Assembly: GCA_024274785.1 (NCBI GenBank)
Contig: JAJSAM010000024.1
Coordinates: 27,880-91,879, forward strand
Source of the DNA: Planctomycetota bacterium
Lineage (GTDB): Bacteria; Planctomycetota; JAJSAM01
Length of the DNA: 64,000 nucleotides
Direction: 5' to 3'
Below the pieces are notes generated by a model. It did not search any database. It was not told the origin of the DNA and worked only from the letters and a program-made list of their open reading frames with translations. The position numbers and the translations under genes were made by a program. This document shows positions 31,466-43,380 of the stretch, one piece after another; positions within the stretch are counted from its first letter, which is position 1; every line of letters begins with the position of its first letter.

Positions 31466-31908
31466 GGGTTGTGCTGACCAATGTGCAGGATGCCCTTCCG
31501 ATCGATGAGGACCGCCTGCTCGGTGAGATCGAGTCCCTCGCCCGCGGTGCCGGGTTCTCCGGAGAACTGTCGGTCGCCCTGGTGACCGACGCCGCGATTC
31601 ACGATCTCAATCGAGACTACCTGGGGCACGACTGCGCAACGGACGTCCTCGCCTTTCCGCTCGGTGAGGAGGGTGAGGAGGAAGGCGAGGTCGTGGTCTC
31701 GGTGGAGCGGGCGATCACCGAGGCGGGGGAGCGGGGCGTTCTGGCGGAAGCCGAGCTGATCTTCTACATCGCCCACGGCATCCTGCACCTCACCGGCTAC
31801 GACGATCACGAGCCCGAAGCCGCTCGCCGGATGCACGCCGTTGCGCTCAGGCTCCTGCGGGGCCTCGGTTACCGGAACAGTATCGCCGCGCGGCAAAGGG
31901 GAGAGTAA
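31462..31908 (+). CDS. ybeY: Endoribonuclease YbeY (rRNA maturation factor)
   Basis: GTG start overlapping the upstream stop. HGILHLTGYDDH zinc-binding motif. About 148 aa. Confidence 0.88.
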   Translation: MRVVLTNVQDALPIDEDRLLGEIESLARGAGFSGELSVALVTDAAIHDLNRDYLGHDCATDVLAFPLGEEGEEEGEVVVSVERAITEAGERGVLAEAELIFYIAHGILHLTGYDDHEPEAARRMHAVALRLLRGLGYRNSIAARQRGE

Positions 31909-32150
31909 ACCGCGGGCCGGGTGGCTGAGCGGAAATGGACCTCGGGGGCTGCGAGCTTCATCCGCCGGATCACGGGGAGCCCTTCCGGAGTTCCCTCGGA
32001 TCATGCCCCGGGCCCGAGTTGCGCTACCCGAACAGCGCCCCCGTCTGCTCCGAGAAATCGCCGAGCAGGTCGATCAGGGGGGGGGCGACGGGGGCGGCGA
32101 TCCGGCCTCTCCCGGCCGGGCGAAGCTTGTTTTTCCCGGTCGGTTTCAGG

Positions 32151-33011
32151 TTAATCGTGACGGGCATGGTGTGAGCCTCCACTCTGACGCCAGCGCGTTT
32201 CCGCGAGCCGGCGGTTCTCGGGTGTACTTACGTCGAACCAGATCCCCTGGAAGAAGAACGCGCCCAGTTCGCCCTGCGCCGCGAGCCGGGGGAAGACATC
32301 GGTCTCGAGCCGGGAAGGCTTGTCCTGGTCGATGAGGTCGAGGACCTCGGGCTCCAGGAGGTAAACACCGGTATTCACGATGCTGATGCCGCCGCTGCGG
32401 GAGCGATGGATGAACTCGAGGATCCGATTGCCCTCCAGCACCACCTTTCCGTAGTTTTTCTCCACCTGGCGCGGCTTGACCGCGATGGTGGCCAGGGTGT
32501 TTTCACCGCGGTGGAACCGGATGAAGCCGCTGATGTCGATGTCCGTCAGCACATCGGCGTTAACGGTCAGGAAGGGGCCGGATTCGAGGTGCTTCCGGGC
32601 TCGCCGGACCGCGCCGGCCGTACCCAGCGGGCGGGTCTCCATGACGTATTCGATTTCGACGCCCAGGTGGTGGCCGTCTCCGAGGTGTCCCCTGACCGCA
32701 TCTCCGCGCTTGCCCGCCAGGACGACGAAGCGCCTGATTCCATGGCTGGCGAGGTGCTCCACGGTCCGGGAGATGAGCGGCTTGCCGCCGATGGGAACGA
32801 GGCAGGGGATGTCGCCGCGCCGGGCCGGGCCGCCAGCGAGCAGGACCGCGGTCTCCACCTCCGGAACGATGGACTGCCGCAGGAGCATTTCGATGGCGTG
32901 GGAGCGATTGCGTACGGTCTGCTTGTCGATGAGCCGGTCGACCTTTGCAAGCAGATCGTGGGAAAGGGTGATCGTCAGCCGCGCCTTGCTCCTCATGGCT
33001 GCCCGGGCCAT
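32151..33011 (-). CDS. Ribbon-helix-helix (CopG-like) DNA-binding domain fused to a sugar-1-phosphate nucleotidyltransferase domain
   Basis: N-terminal RLTITLSHDLLAKVDRLIDKQTVRNRSHAIEMLLRQ is RHH. This is followed by the NTP_transferase fold (VLLAGGPARRGD..., GTAGAVR, GIWFDVSTPE). The G-loop is divergent (GGPARR instead of GGxGTRL). Confidence 0.7.
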   Translation of the reverse strand: MARAAMRSKARLTITLSHDLLAKVDRLIDKQTVRNRSHAIEMLLRQSIVPEVETAVLLAGGPARRGDIPCLVPIGGKPLISRTVEHLASHGIRRFVVLAGKRGDAVRGHLGDGHHLGVEIEYVMETRPLGTAGAVRRARKHLESGPFLTVNADVLTDIDISGFIRFHRGENTLATIAVKPRQVEKNYGKVVLEGNRILEFIHRSRSGGISIVNTGVYLLEPEVLDLIDQDKPSRLETDVFPRLAAQGELGAFFFQGIWFDVSTPENRRLAETRWRQSGGSHHARHD

Positions 33012-33012
33012 G

Positions 33013-33031
33013 TGTCATACTTTGTCATACT
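33013..33031 (-). promoter_or_regulatory. Direct repeat TGTCATACT-n1-TGTCATACT abutting the RHH gene start codon (candidate operator)
   Basis: tgtcatact at 33013-33021 and again at 33023-33031 (a 10-nt period), 1-2 nt upstream of the ATG at 33011. Confidence 0.4.
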
Positions 33032-33188
33032 CAAATGATCGTCCGTACCAGTTGTCCTGTCCAGCGGATTTCCATGATGGGGGGCAATTCTTCGGTCACG
33101 GGAGACGGGGGACGGTGGCTTTGCATTCGGCTCGCATTCCCGCTCGCAATACGGTCGGGGGTCGGATATCGTCGAGCGGGGAGGGTGC

Positions 33189-35072
33189 ATGGTTGACCGG
33201 ATCGAGAAGCTGGAGCGGCAAGTGGCCGAATTGGCTTCCGAAGTCGCGGCGCTCAAGGCCAACCTCTGCTCCGGATCCCGGGTGGCGGATCCGAAGGAAA
33301 GGGCCGGCGCGGTATGCAATGCGGCCGAACCGGCCGGTGGCTCTTCTGAAGGCTGGGCCATCAGCAGAGACTTCGAGCGCCTGGTTGCCGAGCATGGCCT
33401 GGTCATCCTGGCCGGTATCGCCAGCCTCGTCCTCGCGGTGGCGGTGGTCCTGCGCCAGGCGACGATCAACTCGGACCTGCCGGTCGCATTCGGAGCGGCG
33501 CTCGGCCTGGCCTACTGCACTCTCCTGATGGCGATCTCCTTCCTTCGCTACCGCAAGGGGGCGGGTCTGCAGGGAGACGTCTTCCTCGTTCTGGCCACCG
33601 CCATCCTGAACGCGATCCTGGTCGAGGTCACCCTTCGGCCGGATGGATTCACCCGAACGGTCTCCTATGCGGTGCTGGCGACGGCCCTGGTGATCCTGGC
33701 GGTCATCTCGCTGCGGAACGGCCGCGCGGTGCCGTTTACCGCCTGCGTGCTGGCCGCACCCATCGCCGGCGCCGCGATCGGTGGGCGGCCTTTTCAGCAC
33801 CCGCTCTTCGCGACGATCCTCGGGATGTCTCTGCTCCTCTCGTGGGTGGGAAGCATTCTCCGGGGGTTCGGGCGAATCCGGTGGTTCACCGGGTTCCTGA
33901 CCCTCTCGTATGTGTTCACGCTCGGTGCACTGGCAAAAACCGCGCTGCGCCCGGACATGGCCCAGCACGCGCTGGCTCGCCCGGTGCCGGCGCTTTCGGT
34001 GCTGGCCGGCCTTCTCCTTATTCTGCTTCTGCCGGCGGTCGTCGCCTCTCTCAAGCGCCACCGCAGTCTCGATGCATTCGAGGTGACGACGGCGGTTGCG
34101 GGGCCGCTCGCGGTGTTGGTCGCGGGGACCGGGATCCTCCTGGCACTGCCTTCCGGGGCGCGCGTGGCCGGCCTCGCCTGCCTCGGCCTCGGAATACTCT
34201 TTTATGTGACCGCTGCCATCGGCTTTATCCGTCACGGCGCGGAGAGCCGCAGCTTCTACGTTCTCAGCATCAACGCCCTCGTCTACGTCCTCGCGGGCTT
34301 CGCGTTTCTGACGGGCGGGGGGGTGGCGTACGGCGTCACGGTGCAGGGAGCGGCCCTGGTGCTCTCGATCTTCGCGCTGAAACTGGGGAAACGGACGCTG
34401 TCCGTGCAGGCCTTCCTGCTCACCTGCCTGGCGTTTCTGGTGAATGCGAAGACCGGCATCGACCTGTCCGCCCCGGGTGACGGTCTCGCCACACGCATCG
34501 GACCCGCGGTGTGGCTGATCATTTCCGGGGTGATGGCCACTTTCGTCTTCGTTTTCCAGCGTGCCTTCCGCTGGGACAGCCAGAGATTCAGCTTGAAGCG
34601 GCTGAACGCTCACGCCACCGCCCTGGTGGTCGCTCTCGCCATCGGCCAGATCCAACTGCTCTCGGGGTTGCTCCCCCTGATCTACGATCTGGTGATCGGG
34701 ATCGTCGGCACCGCTGATCCCGAGACGCTGTCGGACGTGTGGCACACGATCTACACCCTGCTTCTGGTCTCCGGTTCGCTCATGACGCTGGGGCTCGCGG
34801 TGCGGTTGCGCCTCGGTGGGGCGACGGTACTGGCCGCCGTGGTCATGGTTGCCGCGGGGCTCAAGCTCTTCCTGCACGACGCCATGACCGTGCACTGGAC
34901 GCTGCTGGCGTTCTCGGCCAGTGCATTCGGACTCTCCCTGATCGCCGCGTCGCTCCTCTACCGGAGATTCCGGGGGATCAGCGCTTCGCAGCGCCCGCGG
35001 CCGACGCCTTCTCTTCCCGGCCGAAGAACGGAAACGCCCGATCGAACTGCCGAAGCAGGAGGAAGGGGATGA
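33189..35072 (+). CDS. Polytopic membrane protein with an N-terminal coiled coil (DUF2339-like)
   Basis: ATG is preceded by GGGGAGGG. N-terminal coiled coil IEKLERQVAELASEVAALKANL, followed by at least 14 predicted TM helices. The 3' end overlaps the convergent nrfD-like gene by about 95 nt. Confidence 0.55.
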   Translation: MVDRIEKLERQVAELASEVAALKANLCSGSRVADPKERAGAVCNAAEPAGGSSEGWAISRDFERLVAEHGLVILAGIASLVLAVAVVLRQATINSDLPVAFGAALGLAYCTLLMAISFLRYRKGAGLQGDVFLVLATAILNAILVEVTLRPDGFTRTVSYAVLATALVILAVISLRNGRAVPFTACVLAAPIAGAAIGGRPFQHPLFATILGMSLLLSWVGSILRGFGRIRWFTGFLTLSYVFTLGALAKTALRPDMAQHALARPVPALSVLAGLLLILLLPAVVASLKRHRSLDAFEVTTAVAGPLAVLVAGTGILLALPSGARVAGLACLGLGILFYVTAAIGFIRHGAESRSFYVLSINALVYVLAGFAFLTGGGVAYGVTVQGAALVLSIFALKLGKRTLSVQAFLLTCLAFLVNAKTGIDLSAPGDGLATRIGPAVWLIISGVMATFVFVFQRAFRWDSQRFSLKRLNAHATALVVALAIGQIQLLSGLLPLIYDLVIGIVGTADPETLSDVWHTIYTLLLVSGSLMTLGLAVRLRLGGATVLAAVVMVAAGLKLFLHDAMTVHWTLLAFSASAFGLSLIAASLLYRRFRGISASQRPRPTPSLPGRRTETPDRTAEAGGRG

Positions 35073-36150
35073 TGATGATGATCCCGGCGACCAGGATCCC
35101 CTCCTTATCGAAGAGTCCCGGCAGATAGCTGGTGAACCCCCGGTAGCTCTTGGAGAGCAACTGCCCGCCGATGACGACGTTCCACCGCATCAACAGCACC
35201 TGGATCAGGAGCAGCGCGGCGGAGATGAACAGGAACGAGTTGGCCAGCCTTTGGGGGAGGCGCAGCAGGGTCCGGGCCATGAGCAACAGGAACGGGCCGA
35301 GAGAGCAGATGAAGAGCTGGAACACCACGTAGGAAACGAAGAGCTTTCCACCGATGAGTTCCTTCAGAACCGCCCATCGCTCCGTCTGCTCGTAGGCCAC
35401 CGAGAGGACTTCCATCAGTTCGAGGGAGACCGCTCCGATCATGAAGGCCCACAGGAGCCGGCCGAGGGCGTTCAGGGTGCGCTGGCTGACCGGAAGGCGC
35501 TGCCGCCAGGTCACAAACTGGTACAGGAACGTCAGCACCGCGATGCCGGAGACGATCGCCGAAAAGATGAAGATGATGAACATGAGCGGTGTGGACCACC
35601 ATGGGTTCGCCTTGATCGAGCCGAAGAGAAAGCCCACGTAGCCGTGCAGGATGAGCGCGACGGGAATGCCGACGCCGGCGAGCCCCCGCACCATCATCCG
35701 ATCGATGGCATCGGTCCGCTCGTTCCGGTCCGTGGATCCGAGGAGCGACAGCTTGAGCAGCTTCCTCTTGAGCCCGGCGGCCTCCCTCCACTTCTCGACC
35801 ATCATTCCGCGAAAGTGGAACCAGATCTCGAAGAACACGATCACCGCGTAGATCAGGTAGACAAATCCGAATCCGCTCATGGCCGACCTGAAATTCGGCG
35901 TGATCATGATGTTCATCGCCCGCTCCGGACGGCCGAGGTGGTTCAGGAGAGGCAGGGGAGCGAACAGCAGAAAGACGAATGCGGACACGAGAGAGAAGGT
36001 GGCAATCGGCTTGAGCGCCTGAATCCCGAAAAGGTGATAAAGCGAAGAGACGATGAACGCCCCGGCCACGAGACCGGTGATGTAGGGATAAAGGACGATC
36101 ATCACCGTCCAGGTGACGTGGACTTCATTTGGAAAGACGAAGCCCTCCAT
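34978..36150 (-). CDS. NrfD/PsrC-family polytopic membrane quinol-interacting subunit
   Basis: MEGFVFPNEVHVTWTVMIVLYPYITGLVAG is the typical NrfD N-terminus. About 8-10 TM helices. ATGA overlap with the upstream FeS gene. Confidence 0.8.
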   Translation of the reverse strand: MEGFVFPNEVHVTWTVMIVLYPYITGLVAGAFIVSSLYHLFGIQALKPIATFSLVSAFVFLLFAPLPLLNHLGRPERAMNIMITPNFRSAMSGFGFVYLIYAVIVFFEIWFHFRGMMVEKWREAAGLKRKLLKLSLLGSTDRNERTDAIDRMMVRGLAGVGIPVALILHGYVGFLFGSIKANPWWSTPLMFIIFIFSAIVSGIAVLTFLYQFVTWRQRLPVSQRTLNALGRLLWAFMIGAVSLELMEVLSVAYEQTERWAVLKELIGGKLFVSYVVFQLFICSLGPFLLLMARTLLRLPQRLANSFLFISAALLLIQVLLMRWNVVIGGQLLSKSYRGFTSYLPGLFDKEGILVAGIIIIIPFLLLRQFDRAFPFFGREEKASAAGAAKR

Positions 36151-36917
36151 CACTTCACCTCCAGGTCGAGGCCCAGGTAGTAGCACTTCGGATCGGTGCC
36201 CATTTCCGGTTTCAGCAGGCCGTAACGGCGTTGGTCGAGCACCCGCCGGAGCGGGCTGTCCGGGGCTCGCAGGTCACCGCAGATGCGGGCCTGCCTCGGA
36301 CAGGCGGTGGCGCAGGCGGTCGTCAGGTCCCGGTGGAGGCGGTGGTAGCAGAGGGTGCACTTGTCCGCGGTCCCGATGTCGTGGTCGATGTAGCGGCAGC
36401 CGTAAGGACACGCCTGCACGCAGTAGCCGCAGCCCACGCAGCGGCTGCGATCGATCAGGACCACACCGTCCGGCGAGTGGAACGAGGCTCCGACCGGGCA
36501 GACCTGGGTGCAGGCGGACGCGCGGCAGTGGTTACAGAGCTTGGGTACGAAGAAGCCCTTGGCAAGGCGCTGTTTCTCGCACTGATCCGTTTTGAAACTC
36601 TCGATGGCGCCCTGCGGCGAGTCGACGTGGACCTCGTGATCCTTGTCGATCTCGTAGCGCTCCACCCAGGTTCGATAGAAACTGTCGGGGACGTCGTTTT
36701 CCGCGGAACAGGCGCGCACGCAGGATCCGCAGCCGATGCAACGGGTGGTGTCCACGAGGAAGCCCCACTCGAGTTTCGAGAGATCCTGCATGCTCCTCAG
36801 TTCGGGCTTCTCCCCGGGGGCTCCGAAAGCGGTCAGGGTGCCCACGAAGGCCCCCGTGGCTCCTGCGAGGGCCAACTGGATGAACCGCCGTCGGTTCAGG
36901 TCGGTGTTGTCTCCCAT
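36150..36917 (-). CDS. 4Fe-4S ferredoxin-type iron-sulfur subunit (NrfC/PsrB/HybA-like) with a Tat signal
   Basis: ATG at 36917 after GGGGAGG. Twin-arginine motif NRRRFIQLALAGATG. Four Cys clusters (CIGCGSCVRAC, CNHCRASACTQVCP, CVGCGYCVQACP, CTLCYHR...ACATACP). Confidence 0.85.
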   Translation of the reverse strand: MGDNTDLNRRRFIQLALAGATGAFVGTLTAFGAPGEKPELRSMQDLSKLEWGFLVDTTRCIGCGSCVRACSAENDVPDSFYRTWVERYEIDKDHEVHVDSPQGAIESFKTDQCEKQRLAKGFFVPKLCNHCRASACTQVCPVGASFHSPDGVVLIDRSRCVGCGYCVQACPYGCRYIDHDIGTADKCTLCYHRLHRDLTTACATACPRQARICGDLRAPDSPLRRVLDQRRYGLLKPEMGTDPKCYYLGLDLEVK

Positions 36918-36919
36918 GT

Positions 36920-37885
36920 TCACCTCCCCAGGAGCTTCCTGGCGTGGACTTCCTTCAGGTGGCACTTCAGGCAGGCCCGCGGATCGGCCTCCAGTTCCAC
37001 GGGGTCGAGGTCGAGCAGTTCGGCAAACTCGTCGAGGTGGATTTTTGAGTCGATCGCCGGGACCTGCTCCGTGTCCTTGAAGCTCTTCCGCTCGTGGCAG
37101 AGCAGGCAGAAACGGCGATTTCCGTTCTTGAAGATCCTTCCCGCCACCTCGTTCTCGCGATGAAAGAAGTGGCAGGCCGTGCAGTCCATGAAGTTGTGCC
37201 GGCGGCCGGCGAAGTCGCCGACGATCTCCTGGTGACAGTCCGCGCAGGCGAAGATCACGGGGTGGTCGGGTGCTTCATGATGGCTCTTCTGAGGGCGTTT
37301 CTCGTGGCAGGTGACACATTCGTAGATCACCGGGTGCGTCCGGGCCTCCGCCACCCTCGTCAGGAGGAACACCGGTTCGTGCGGATCATGGCACTCGATG
37401 CACCGCGTTTTCGGGTCCGTCACCTTGAGGAATTCGTAGTGTGCGACGGGGTCTATCTGCGGGAAGTCGGCCGGGCGTGAGTTCAGGCGGCGATGGCAGA
37501 AGAGGCAGCCTTCGAGTGTGTACTCTTTCGGCATCAGGCGGGCGGGATCATCCTCCGCGGGCGGCCCCTCCCGATGAGCCCGCACATGCTCGGCGCCGGG
37601 GCCGTGGCAGTCCTCGCACTGCACATCGAAGTGGATGTCCTTCTGGTGAGTCTGGAGAATGCCGGCATGGCACTCTCCGCAGGTCTCCCGGCCCTGATGC
37701 AGGGGTTCCCGCGAGATGATGTCCTCGAGCACGGCCCGTTGATACTCACCGCCATCCCCGTATCCGTCAGGGCGCAAGACGGCCTGAATCACCAGTCCGA
37801 GCACCGTTGCAATTGCCAGGAGGATGACGACTCGAGTTACGTGGGCGTGGTCGTTGCGGTTGTTCCCGGCGGAAGATGCCCACAT
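36920..37885 (-). CDS. Membrane-anchored multiheme cytochrome c (nine CXXCH motifs)
   Basis: ATG at 37885 after AAGGAG; the GTG at 37906 is less likely. TM anchor VVILLAIATVLGLVIQAVL. CXXCH motifs: CGECH, CEDCH, CLFCH, CIECH, CVTCH, CADCH, CTACH, CLLCH, CLKCH. Confidence 0.85.
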   Translation of the reverse strand: MWASSAGNNRNDHAHVTRVVILLAIATVLGLVIQAVLRPDGYGDGGEYQRAVLEDIISREPLHQGRETCGECHAGILQTHQKDIHFDVQCEDCHGPGAEHVRAHREGPPAEDDPARLMPKEYTLEGCLFCHRRLNSRPADFPQIDPVAHYEFLKVTDPKTRCIECHDPHEPVFLLTRVAEARTHPVIYECVTCHEKRPQKSHHEAPDHPVIFACADCHQEIVGDFAGRRHNFMDCTACHFFHRENEVAGRIFKNGNRRFCLLCHERKSFKDTEQVPAIDSKIHLDEFAELLDLDPVELEADPRACLKCHLKEVHARKLLGR

Positions 37886-38968: not shown

Positions 38969-39086
38969 GACGGAAGGAAACCCGAGTGAGCGCTTCCTGG
39001 CAAGGAAGATTTCGTGACCACCGGGGTACAATCGTTCAGTCAAGTCGACTTTACACCTGTCGTAAGCGACGGCGCAGAAGGTACCC

Positions 39087-41234
39087 TTGGACGAGCTCCT
39101 GAAAGACGCCACGAAGGCCCAGATCGAAGCCATCACCCATCTCGAGGGCCCTCTGCTCGTCCTCGCCGGACCGGGCAGCGGCAAGACGCGCGTGGTGACC
39201 AGGCGCATCGCGTGGCTCGTGGAGCAGGGGGTGCCGCCCGAGCACATCCTGGCCATCACGTTCACGAACAAGGCCGCGGAGGAGATGCGGGATCGCGTGA
39301 ACGCGCTGCTCGATGCCCCCGGGATGTGGGTTTCCACGTTCCACTCGATGGGGGCCCGGATGCTGCGCCGATCCGCGAACCACATCGGCATGGACCGGTC
39401 GTTCACGATCTACGACGACTCCGATCAAAAGCGCGTCATCCGCGACATCATCAGGGACCTGAATCTCGATTCCACCCAGTTCAAGCCCAACGCCGTCGCC
39501 GGCAGGATCAGCCGCTTGAAGACGGACCTCATCACGCCGGCGAAGGCCGCGGCGGGGGCGCACGACTTTTTCACCGAGGCGGTCTCGAAGATCTACCCGA
39601 GGTACGAAAAGCGGCTCCTCGACAGCAATGGGATGGACTTCGACGATCTCCTGGTCAAGAACCTGAAACTCCTGACCGAGAGCGCGGACGCGCGCGAGTA
39701 CTACCAGCGCCGGTTCCGCTTTGTCCTCGTGGATGAGTACCAGGACACCAACCGCGTGCAGTTCCTCCTCTTGAAGACGCTGGCCGCGCCGCAGCAGAAC
39801 CTCCACGTCACCGGCGATCCGGATCAGTCCATCTATCGCTTTCGCGGCGCCGACATCCGCAACATTCTCGACTTCGAAATGGTCTACAAGGGTGCGCGCA
39901 TCATCCGCCTCCAGGAAAATTTCCGGTCGACGAGTCTCATCCTCAAGGGTGCGGACAGCTTGATCAGGAACAACCGGGAACGGAAGGAGAAGGAACTCGT
40001 CGGTACGCGGGAGGAGGGCCGGAAGATCCGCGTGCACGAATGCGAGGATGAGGAGGAGGAGGGCAACTTCATCGCGGACGAGGTGTTGACCGCTTTCTCC
40101 CGAGGCATCCCCTACTCGGAGATCGCCATCTTCTACCGCGTCCATTCCTTGTCCCGCTCGCTGGAGCGGGCGTTCCTCGACAAGGGCATCCCGTACACCA
40201 TTGTCCGCGGCACCGAGTTCTACCGGCGCGCCGAGGTGCAGGACCTGCTTGCGTACCTCAAGATCGTGGCGAACCCGCGGGATTCCGAGAACCTCCTGCG
40301 TATCCTGAACGTGCCGGCAAGGGGCATCGGGCAGGCCACCCGGGACCGCCTGCTCGCCTTCGCCATGGAGCGGGACGAGCCATTGCTCAAGGCGATCCTG
40401 AACGTGGACGGCGCGACCTCGATCAAGGGGCGGGGCCTTTCCGCCGTTTCGTCGTTGGCCGGGCTCTTCCGGCTGCTGCTCGGGATGGCCGGGAGACCCA
40501 TCGCCGACATCCTCACCGAACTGGTGGGGCGCACGGATTTCAAGGCTCACCTGAAAAGCAAGCACCCCGAGAGCCACGAGGATCGCTGGGAAAACGTCGC
40601 GCAACTGGTCTCGTCCGCAGCCGAATTCGAAGAGAAGCACGAAGGCGCCGGCCTCTCCGCCTATCTCGAGGAGGTTTCGCTCCTTTCCGATGTGGATCGC
40701 TTCGACCCGAAGGCCGCCCGCGTCTCCTTCATGACCCTGCACACCGCCAAGGGCCTGGAGTTCCAGACGGTCTTCGTGGCGGGCATGGAGGATGGGCTGC
40801 TGCCGCACTCCCGTTCCCGGGACTCCCGGCAGGAGATGGAGGAGGAGCGGCGACTGCTCTTCGTGGGCATGACCCGCGCCCGGGAGGAACTCACGTTGAG
40901 CCACGCCCAGCGCCGCTTCCGCTGGGGCGAGCACGGTTACTCCCGGCCGTCGTGCTTCTACGATGAGATCGACCCGGCGGCGGTGCAGCAGGATCTGCCC
41001 CCGATGGAGGACGTGTCGCACTTTTCCGTGGATCGTCTTGTCGAGCCGGAGCCCGATGCCGCCATCCGCACCGGCATGATGGTCCGGCACAGCCACTTCG
41101 GAGTGGGGCGCGTGCTGGATATCTCCGGATCCGGCCCCTCCACCCGCATCACGGTGGATTTCCAGAACCACGGACGGAAGAAGCTCGTCCTGATGTATGC
41201 GAACCTGAGTCCCATCGAGGAGGCTTCGTGGTAG
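39087..41234 (+). CDS. pcrA: ATP-dependent DNA helicase, UvrD/PcrA/Rep family
   Basis: TTG start. Motif I GPGSGKT, motif II DEYQDTN, FRGADI, and a conserved C-terminal region. Confidence 0.88.
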   Translation: MDELLKDATKAQIEAITHLEGPLLVLAGPGSGKTRVVTRRIAWLVEQGVPPEHILAITFTNKAAEEMRDRVNALLDAPGMWVSTFHSMGARMLRRSANHIGMDRSFTIYDDSDQKRVIRDIIRDLNLDSTQFKPNAVAGRISRLKTDLITPAKAAAGAHDFFTEAVSKIYPRYEKRLLDSNGMDFDDLLVKNLKLLTESADAREYYQRRFRFVLVDEYQDTNRVQFLLLKTLAAPQQNLHVTGDPDQSIYRFRGADIRNILDFEMVYKGARIIRLQENFRSTSLILKGADSLIRNNRERKEKELVGTREEGRKIRVHECEDEEEEGNFIADEVLTAFSRGIPYSEIAIFYRVHSLSRSLERAFLDKGIPYTIVRGTEFYRRAEVQDLLAYLKIVANPRDSENLLRILNVPARGIGQATRDRLLAFAMERDEPLLKAILNVDGATSIKGRGLSAVSSLAGLFRLLLGMAGRPIADILTELVGRTDFKAHLKSKHPESHEDRWENVAQLVSSAAEFEEKHEGAGLSAYLEEVSLLSDVDRFDPKAARVSFMTLHTAKGLEFQTVFVAGMEDGLLPHSRSRDSRQEMEEERRLLFVGMTRAREELTLSHAQRRFRWGEHGYSRPSCFYDEIDPAAVQQDLPPMEDVSHFSVDRLVEPEPDAAIRTGMMVRHSHFGVGRVLDISGSGPSTRITVDFQNHGRKKLVLMYANLSPIEEASW

Positions 41235-41259
41235 GCGCAAGCTCCATCGCGGTGATGGG

Positions 41260-43380
<2,121 letters not shown>

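Follow-up and report, generated by a model that had tools for sequence, protein, structure and literature searches.

A ribbon-helix-helix protein with a degenerate sugar nucleotidyltransferase fold as a candidate autoregulated transcription factor with a linked micro-protein

A gene on the minus strand of a 64,000-nucleotide stretch of a Planctomycetota bacterium contig (JAJSAM010000024.1, positions 27,880 to 91,879; hereafter the window) encodes a protein in which an N-terminal ribbon-helix-helix (RHH) domain is joined to a domain with the fold of a sugar-1-phosphate nucleotidyltransferase (NTase). The results favor, at a probability of roughly 60%, an interpretation in which this gene encodes an autoregulated one-component transcription factor, with the RHH as its DNA-binding head and a catalytically dead NTase-fold domain behind it. 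We observe the domain architecture, a decay of catalytic motifs across the family, a repeat conserved at the promoter, and a linked gene for a small peptide, and from these we infer a protein that would bind DNA, repress its own operon, have lost catalysis, and respond to a ligand.

The open reading frame (ORF) listing for the 64-kb window gives a minus-strand ORF of 286 amino acids (aa) at 32151-33011, opening at an in-frame ATG at 33011. The start codon is probably ATG 32996 rather than 33011, giving a gene at 32151-32996 and a protein of 281 aa, because a database protein with 100% identity to it (P0001) is also 281 aa long and nearly all homologs begin MRSK.RLTITL. Residues 1-46 (32859-32996, minus strand) form a NikR-type RHH domain predicted to bind DNA, with RLTITL as its strand and NRSHAIE in helix 2. 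Pfam RHH_1 matches residues 11-46 (E=1.2e-4, 22.3 bits against a gathering cut-off of 20.5), and a precomputed PF01402 match is recorded for 68 of the 120 best homologs. The AlphaFold2 model (mean pLDDT 85.3, pTM 0.77) places the RHH helices at 13-22 and 31-42 and leaves the strand unformed, as is expected for an RHH modeled as a monomer. The strand-helix-helix topology is present, polar residues alternate along R6-L-T8-I-T10-L, and R6, T8, T10, R31, S32, A34, and E36 are invariant in an alignment of 50 homologs. An original prediction, made from the DNA sequence of the window alone, had already recognized the RHH, and the Pfam match bears it out; judged by sequence, the nearest of the RHH types is NikR, a relationship which that prediction had missed, along with the probable start codon and the conserved peptide gene that overlaps the 3' end. 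NCBIfam NikR models match residues 8-50 only (E about 2e-6; 28.3 bits against a whole-protein cut-off of 175), and the protein is not itself a NikR, as there is no whole-protein match and the metal-domain feature is absent.

The NTase-like (GT-A/Rossmann) domain occupies residues 48-270 (32187-32855, minus strand) and is supported by Pfam, PDB profiles, AlphaFold2, Foldseek, and the alignments. Pfam NTP_transferase (PF00483) matches residues 66-265 (E=9.7e-28, 97.8 bits against a cut-off of 21.2), and in a single-sequence PDB search the closest solved structures are GDP-mannose pyrophosphorylases, led by GMPPB (7d72, E=2.7e-25), with the alignment beginning at residue 71, past the G-loop. Foldseek searches with the model returned VTC1, GMPPB, MurU, and HddC for the C-terminal domain, with E-values down to 1e-22 and a TM score of about 0.72. 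A toxin-antitoxin (TA) nucleotidyltransferase of the MNT/AbiEii type, which has a Pol-beta fold, was ruled out by the same searches, in which the fold is that of a GT-A sugar-NTase. The fold itself is thus the RmlA/GalU-like one originally predicted, and translation of the loop region likewise confirms the degenerate G-loop GGPARRGD, yet the NCBIfam sugar-NTase equivalogs all score far under their cut-offs (108.6 bits against 440 at best).

A protein search returned 943 relatives, and statements about the family rest on the best 120 of these (54-69% identity, 269-307 aa), with column statistics and invariance taken from the 50-sequence homolog alignment. These homologs originate from Planctomycetota, Acidobacteriota/Thermoanaerobaculia, Anaerolineae/Ardenticatenaceae, Zixibacteria, and others; the layout of an RHH followed by an NTase domain is common to all 120, as is LLAGG-x5-7-P(A/P)L instead of the canonical GGxGTRLxPLTxxxPKxL. 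In the window protein, this signature is replaced by the degenerate, shortened loop AVLLAGGPARRGDIPCL (32799-32849, minus strand), which reads GG-PARRGD where GGxGTRL would be expected, and when the family profile is aligned to PDB entries across the loop, a 6-residue gap falls opposite GTRLRPLT of GMPPB (7d72_K) and VTC1. A shortening of the loop by 6-8 residues, together with hypervariability, is seen in 50/50 aligned sequences and in 120/120 best homologs. A comparison of the family with canonical relatives taken from genomes (L012, L013, L018, L024, and L036) and with RHH fusions that retain an intact loop (L011, L089, and L090) indicates that four canonical features are missing together: the G-x-G-T-R loop, the Lys of P-K, the Lys of E-K-P, and the G-T after W-x-D, which is I/V-S in the family. 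The P-K Lys, equivalent to K25 of RmlA, is Ala in 86% of homologs and Cys65 in the window protein, and the E-K-P segment containing the equivalent of RmlA K162 reads H-R-S in the window protein, at the variable positions 196-202.

Three basic residues hold the phosphates during catalysis in enzymes of the RmlA type, namely the Arg of the loop and the lysines of PK and EKP. The top residue has a frequency of 28% across loop positions 57-63 and 33% across the EKP segment (196-202), compared with 67% overall, and these are the most variable stretches of the protein, with 11-14 residue types per column. Because all three phosphate-binding basic residues are gone and selection appears to be relaxed at those positions, the data fit a non-catalytic NTase-like domain that would serve as a pseudoenzyme sensor or an oligomerization domain. 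Other parts of the site are strictly maintained: PLGTAG, D148, E231, and W253-x-D255 are invariant, so that both Mg-ligand aspartates (of G-D and W-x-D) are kept, and the family has gained an invariant motif, V173-K174-P175-R176, adjoining the sugar-site YG. This retention of the remainder of the pocket argues that some ligand is still bound. The original prediction had offered either altered substrate use or a sensor role for the degenerate loop, and the sensor role is the better fit to a family-wide loop deletion in which three basic residues are lost at what have become the most variable positions. The alignment to catalytic enzymes that it proposed finds the Arg and both Lys lost and both Asp kept, and orthologs retain the RHH without having a normal active site.

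The fusion of an RHH to an NTase fold extends well beyond this family. A search with the first 75 residues, comprising the RHH and the loop, against 1.84 billion cluster representatives (50% identity clusters, E<=1e-3) matched 197 clusters, among which are fully canonical fusions that carry GGKGTRLRPFTYEMPKP and EKP (for example, P0354, P0381, and P0306), others with partly decayed loops (GGKGTKLRP..., GGSGVNMRP..., GGEGVKLRP...), and the loop-deleted form found in the window, which constitutes one group. A NikR-like RHH is joined to a canonical or partly decayed loop in L011, from a euryarchaeon, L089, L090, P0354, P0381, P0306, P0272, and P0285, among others. There is also a group of shorter RHH proteins of ~205-224 aa with a different C-terminal part (P0312, P0315, P0316, P0322, P0325, P0339, P0356, and P0385), and none of the NTase motifs screened for was present in the C-terminal region of these. 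Since related fusions run from canonical through partly decayed to deleted loops, the fusion seems to have been kept while the catalytic loop decayed, in an apparent series from enzyme to pseudoenzyme. If regulation is the selected role of the fusion, one expects just such a pattern, with loop decay and retention of the RHH. The original description of the fusion as rare therefore does not hold, given its presence in 120/120 best homologs and 197 clusters at 50% identity, and it is common in metagenomes.

The sequence upstream of the gene contains a predicted operator, the tandem direct repeat AGTATGACA-A-AGTATGACA (33013-33031, minus strand), which has a 10-bp period and belongs to a conserved upstream region. 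Read on the plus strand, it consists of TGTCATACT twice, at 33013-33021 and 33023-33031, and it lies 15 nt upstream of ATG 32996. The direct repeat is unique in the 64-kb window and had 0 matches in 100 shuffles. In a survey of 165 fetched loci (1.4 Mb) with the pattern TATGA[CT]N4TATGA[CT], 16 copies were found, 15 of them sharing the strand of a family gene and preceding it by 19-55 nt, and there was no copy in ~140 control loci that contain ordinary NTases. With variants counted, the operator is present at 23 of the 28 family loci, across phyla; among the variants are L164, with one mismatch, and L082 and L168, each with three repeats. The repeat at 33013-33031 had been singled out in the original prediction as a target for the RHH, and it is conserved upstream of the family genes. 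The 16th copy, at L008 805-822 (GTATGACAAAGTATGATG), is near-perfect and has no obvious gene downstream on its strand; the family gene of that locus, 5.2 kb further downstream, has no operator of its own.

The position of the repeat is also consistent with control of the gene's own promoter. A promoter-like site, TGGACA-17 nt-GATCAT, is found at 33035-33063 on the minus strand, from which the transcription start would fall inside the operator, and in L003, L005, L006, and L165-L170 the operator overlaps or adjoins clearer promoters of sigma-70 type (TTGACA/TTGACG-17/18-TAnAGT or TATnAT); in L006, the -10 element of TTGACG-17-TATAGT runs into repeat 1. An Rfam scan of 31800-33300 gave no match, so the conserved flanks are not a known RNA. 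The nearest solved RHH, NikR, has the strand RVTITL where the window protein has RLTITL, and the repeat unit GTATGAC matches the half-site GTATGA of Escherichia coli NikR, whose operator is GTATGA-N16-TCATAC (PMC7055735); the enterobacterial NikR consensus is GTATGAT-N13/14-ATCATAC (PMC545781). We regard the repeat as the conserved operator of the family, to which the RHH is predicted to bind. The direct repeats are one helical turn apart, and tandem RHH dimers would therefore be placed on one face of the DNA.

Immediately downstream, and overlapping the last 17 nt of the NTase-like gene, is a gene for a peptide of 47 aa beginning MPVTINLK (32024-32167, minus strand; a called gene, P0121), with the full sequence MPVTINLKPTGKNKLRPAGRGRIAAPVAPPLIDLLGDFSEQTGALFG. 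Its Shine-Dalgarno sequence, GGAGG at 32176-32180, is 8 nt before the ATG and lies within the C-terminal 'GG' codons of the upstream gene. The peptide ends in a conserved C-terminal tail, LIDLLGDFSEQTGALFG (32027-32077, minus strand), followed by the stop codon TAG, and in this tail G, Q, G, and F are invariant. The peptide and its tail occur in 18 of the 28 family loci, always immediately downstream of or overlapping the RHH-NTase gene, and the arrangement of the window is also seen in L001, L002, L003, L005, L006, L081, L083-L085, L162-L167, L169, and L170. A search that started from the peptide led to the same arrangement, as both of the contigs that could be retrieved (L169 and L170) have an RHH-NTase gene and operator directly upstream. 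The peptide is predicted to be co-transcribed with the RHH-NTase gene; the sequence downstream of it does not fold into a significant RNA structure (z = +0.85), and the minus strand lacks an intrinsic terminator there. A profile search found at least 134 proteins of the peptide family, 33-78 aa in length and all annotated as 'hypothetical', and for many of them the longest contig equals in length that of an RHH-NTase match. They agree almost completely over their final 17 residues, (R/E)(I/L)x(D/N)LLGDFSEQTGAxFG-COOH, whereas the preceding part is hypervariable, with an abundance of Pro, Arg, Ala, and Ser.

Within the tail, 33, 26, and 76 non-consensus bases fall at codon positions 1, 2, and 3, respectively, and this concentration of variation at third positions marks the tail as coding sequence. 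There was no meaningful match to the peptide in Pfam, NCBIfam, PADLOC, or PDB profiles, and by sequence the linked micro-protein constitutes a new small-protein family without known relatives. In its structure model (pTM 0.19), no DSSP elements are present, and the peptide, by this model without an independent fold, has the character of a disordered segment that carries a docking motif at its C-terminus. No natural fusion of the NTase-like protein with the peptide was present among the fetched proteins. Across the window (32024-32026) and 15 other loci, the stop codon of the peptide gene is TAG in 13 of the 16, and for 15 of these loci the neighboring RHH-NTase gene stops at TGA in 8, TAG in 4, and TAA in 3.

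Given these observations, a plausible mechanism can be proposed for the preferred reading of the gene as an autoregulated transcription factor. RHH dimers would bind the two, or elsewhere three, GTATGAC direct repeats that lie over the promoter and transcription start of their own operon, and when bound would repress that operon, which consists of the regulator and the peptide and, in some lineages, a gene for a fructose-1,6-bisphosphate (FBP) aldolase/phosphatase. The NTase-like domain, its catalysis presumably lost, would act as an oligomerization and effector-binding module that sets the affinity for DNA. The effector may be a nucleotide-sugar or a sugar-phosphate, and/or the 47-aa peptide acting through its invariant C-terminal tail, as suggested by the GMPP-like fold, the retained base/sugar side of the pocket, and the KPR motif, which supplies new basic residues. 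As the FBP aldolase/phosphatase gene shares the operon in some lineages, the module may couple gluconeogenic output to the hexose-nucleotide pool. A more specific version, in which the dead NTase pocket is the receptor for the peptide tail LLGDFSEQTGAxFG-COOH, making a peptide-gated RHH repressor that controls FBP aldolase/phosphatase in some Chloroflexota-like lineages, is tentative, and we regard it as possible rather than probable.

Several findings weigh against a transcription factor of this kind. There is no second copy of the operator in the 64-kb window even when up to 3 mismatches are allowed, and within the window the predicted regulon is limited to the operon itself. Five divergent family loci have no adjacent operator, the promoter-like site of the window matches at only 9/12 positions, and the repeats are direct here but inverted in NikR, so that the binding geometry must differ between the two. 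Ten of the 28 family loci are without the peptide; these are mostly divergent members with <50% identity, the others being L082 and L168, where the next gene follows directly (in L082, only a remnant of the peptide remains). Most of the pocket, including the two Mg-ligand aspartates, is invariant, and the invariant K174/R176 could stand in for the lost lysines and give residual or altered catalysis.

This last point leads to a different explanation, that the protein is a bifunctional enzyme and repressor in the manner of PutA, BirA, or NadR, which would use K174/R176 to act on an unusual substrate and have its DNA binding controlled by catalysis or occupancy. The invariance of D148, D255, E231, and PLGTAG and the appearance of V-K-P-R at 173-176 beside the sugar-site YG are what such an enzyme would show, and relatives that have a canonical active site with the same RHH do exist (L011, L089, P0354, and P0381). 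However, a catalytic site would not be expected to tolerate the loss of 6-8 residues from its Gly-rich loop and hypervariability there, with 11-14 different residues per column, together with an equally variable EKP segment, and we consider a bifunctional protein unlikely for this reason. That the protein is simply an ordinary sugar-1-phosphate NTase with an incidental N-terminal extension, which would agree with the strong PF00483 match, the GMPP-like fold, and source annotations such as 'sugar phosphate nucleotidyltransferase' and 'mannose-1-phosphate guanylyltransferase', is highly improbable, as it is contradicted by the motif analysis, in which no family member has the signature loop or either lysine, by NCBIfam equivalog scores far below their cut-offs (e.g., 108 against 440), and by the invariance of the RHH residues and the conservation of a cognate operator across phyla.

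The genetic organization brings to mind another possibility, a TA-like or selfish two-gene module in which the RHH protein would be an autorepressing antitoxin or partner and the peptide the toxic or effector component. The two genes form an operon in which translation is apparently coupled and the RHH protein is encoded first, its operator overlaps the promoter, indicative of autoregulation, and the module has a patchy distribution across phyla in gene neighborhoods that are not conserved. Yet the regulator and operator persist in the 10 of 28 loci that have no peptide, a housekeeping FBPase gene is part of the operon at four loci, and the peptide is disordered except for its 14-17-aa tail and has no toxin-like features. 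The peptide has no match in PADLOC, Pfam, or NCBIfam, PADLOC likewise gives no match for the RHH-NTase protein, and there is no recognizable toxin family beside the RHH protein. A TA-like module is, on this evidence, quite improbable.

The genes that surround the module in the window are unrelated to it. On one side, convergent with the module, are purA, uppS, cdsA, phoH, a 7TM-HD protein gene, and ybeY, and on the other side are a divergently transcribed gene for a 627-aa membrane protein and an NrfD/Fe-S cluster. The 627-aa protein (33189-35072, plus strand) is multi-pass, with a coiled-coil-like N-terminal segment and no Pfam match, and the 3' end of its gene overlaps the NrfD gene (34978-36186, minus strand). 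Genes for NrfD, 4Fe-4S, and multihaem-cytochrome proteins adjoin the module both in the window (34978-36965, minus strand) and in L170 (1-1809), and L163 (229-5885) has Fer4 and faint multihaem-cytochrome matches without NrfD; this adjacency may represent weak synteny or shared host ancestry. A 742-aa ORF at 39051-41279 (minus strand) has no Pfam match at E<=1e-5.

In an all-against-all comparison of the ORFs from 23 loci, the only recurrent neighbor was the FBP aldolase/phosphatase (FBPase_3, PF01950), encoded directly downstream in the same orientation at L082 1962-3122, L162 7330-8445, L163 7084-8235, and L168 3445-4605; the comparison gave three of these loci, and the fourth was added afterwards. 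In L082 and L168, the FBPase gene is accompanied by loss of the peptide gene and by three operator repeats. This adjacency is suggestive of a clade-specific link to gluconeogenesis and the hexose-phosphate/NDP-sugar pool. A database protein of 107 aa, P0241, in which the RHH N-terminus is joined directly to C-terminal residues of the FBP aldolase/phosphatase (MLPVQELEYSAFRH...), probably represents a deletion or an assembly chimera, and it shows again that the two genes are adjacent.

The fusion family is widespread and undescribed, and full-text literature searches found no paper on a fusion of an RHH with a sugar-NTase. If the proposed role is correct, hundreds of metagenomic proteins from Acidobacteriota, Chloroflexota, Zixibacteria, Planctomycetota, and CPR-type (candidate phyla radiation) genomes whose present annotation is 'sugar phosphate nucleotidyltransferase' or 'mannose-1-phosphate guanylyltransferase' would have to be reassigned to the transcription factors. 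The family would also provide a natural series, with active enzymes fused to an RHH at one end and loop-deleted pseudoenzymes at the other, that is useful for investigating the evolution of sensors from enzymes. As the operator prediction is precise, with a recognition code apparently shared with NikR, the hypothesis is directly testable. The peptide partner, with its invariant C-terminal tail, is the most novel element, and a peptide-gated RHH repressor, if true, would be an autoregulatory switch in two parts of a kind not known before.

By sequence and fold, the window protein is a structural member of both the PF00483 and RHH superfamilies, without the catalytic signature of PF00483, and a close parallel is NikR. 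NikR has the nearest RHH sequence (RVTITL...NRSEAI, compared with RLTITL...NRSHAI here), and the two share the DNA half-site GTATGA(T) and the design of an N-terminal RHH followed by a C-terminal effector or oligomerization domain. They differ in that the C-terminal domain binds metal in NikR and has an NTase fold here, and in that NikR recognizes the inverted repeat GTATGA-N16-TCATAC, whereas the repeats here are direct and 10 bp apart.

Other systems share one or another feature of the module. PutA, in which an RHH is joined to a proline-catabolic enzyme, BirA, and NadR all couple metabolism to transcription through a DNA-binding domain on a metabolic-enzyme fold, but those proteins are catalytically active, whereas the catalytic basic residues have been lost family-wide here. 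The sugar-NTase fold is reused as a non-catalytic regulatory or ligand-binding module in GMPPA and in the gamma and epsilon subunits of eIF2B, and GMPPA and eIF2B chains are among the PDB matches of the window protein. These act by allosteric control of partner proteins, do not bind DNA, and have a longer loop, in contrast to the deleted loop and added RHH found here. In NrtR (Nudix-wHTH), ROK/Mlc, SorC/CggR, and RpiR-SIS regulators, an enzyme fold without catalysis serves as the sensor of a sugar or nucleotide metabolite and controls the DNA-binding domain attached to it; both the sensor fold and the DNA-binding fold are different from those described here, and to our knowledge, none of these regulators has been reported with a dedicated co-encoded peptide. 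Finally, RHH dimers of MetJ, omega, and ParG bind tandem short repeats cooperatively, in the case of MetJ with a small-molecule corepressor. Although they belong to different sequence families and have no enzyme-fold domain, they are similar in the predicted mode of binding, with several RHH dimers arranged on repeats about one helical turn apart.

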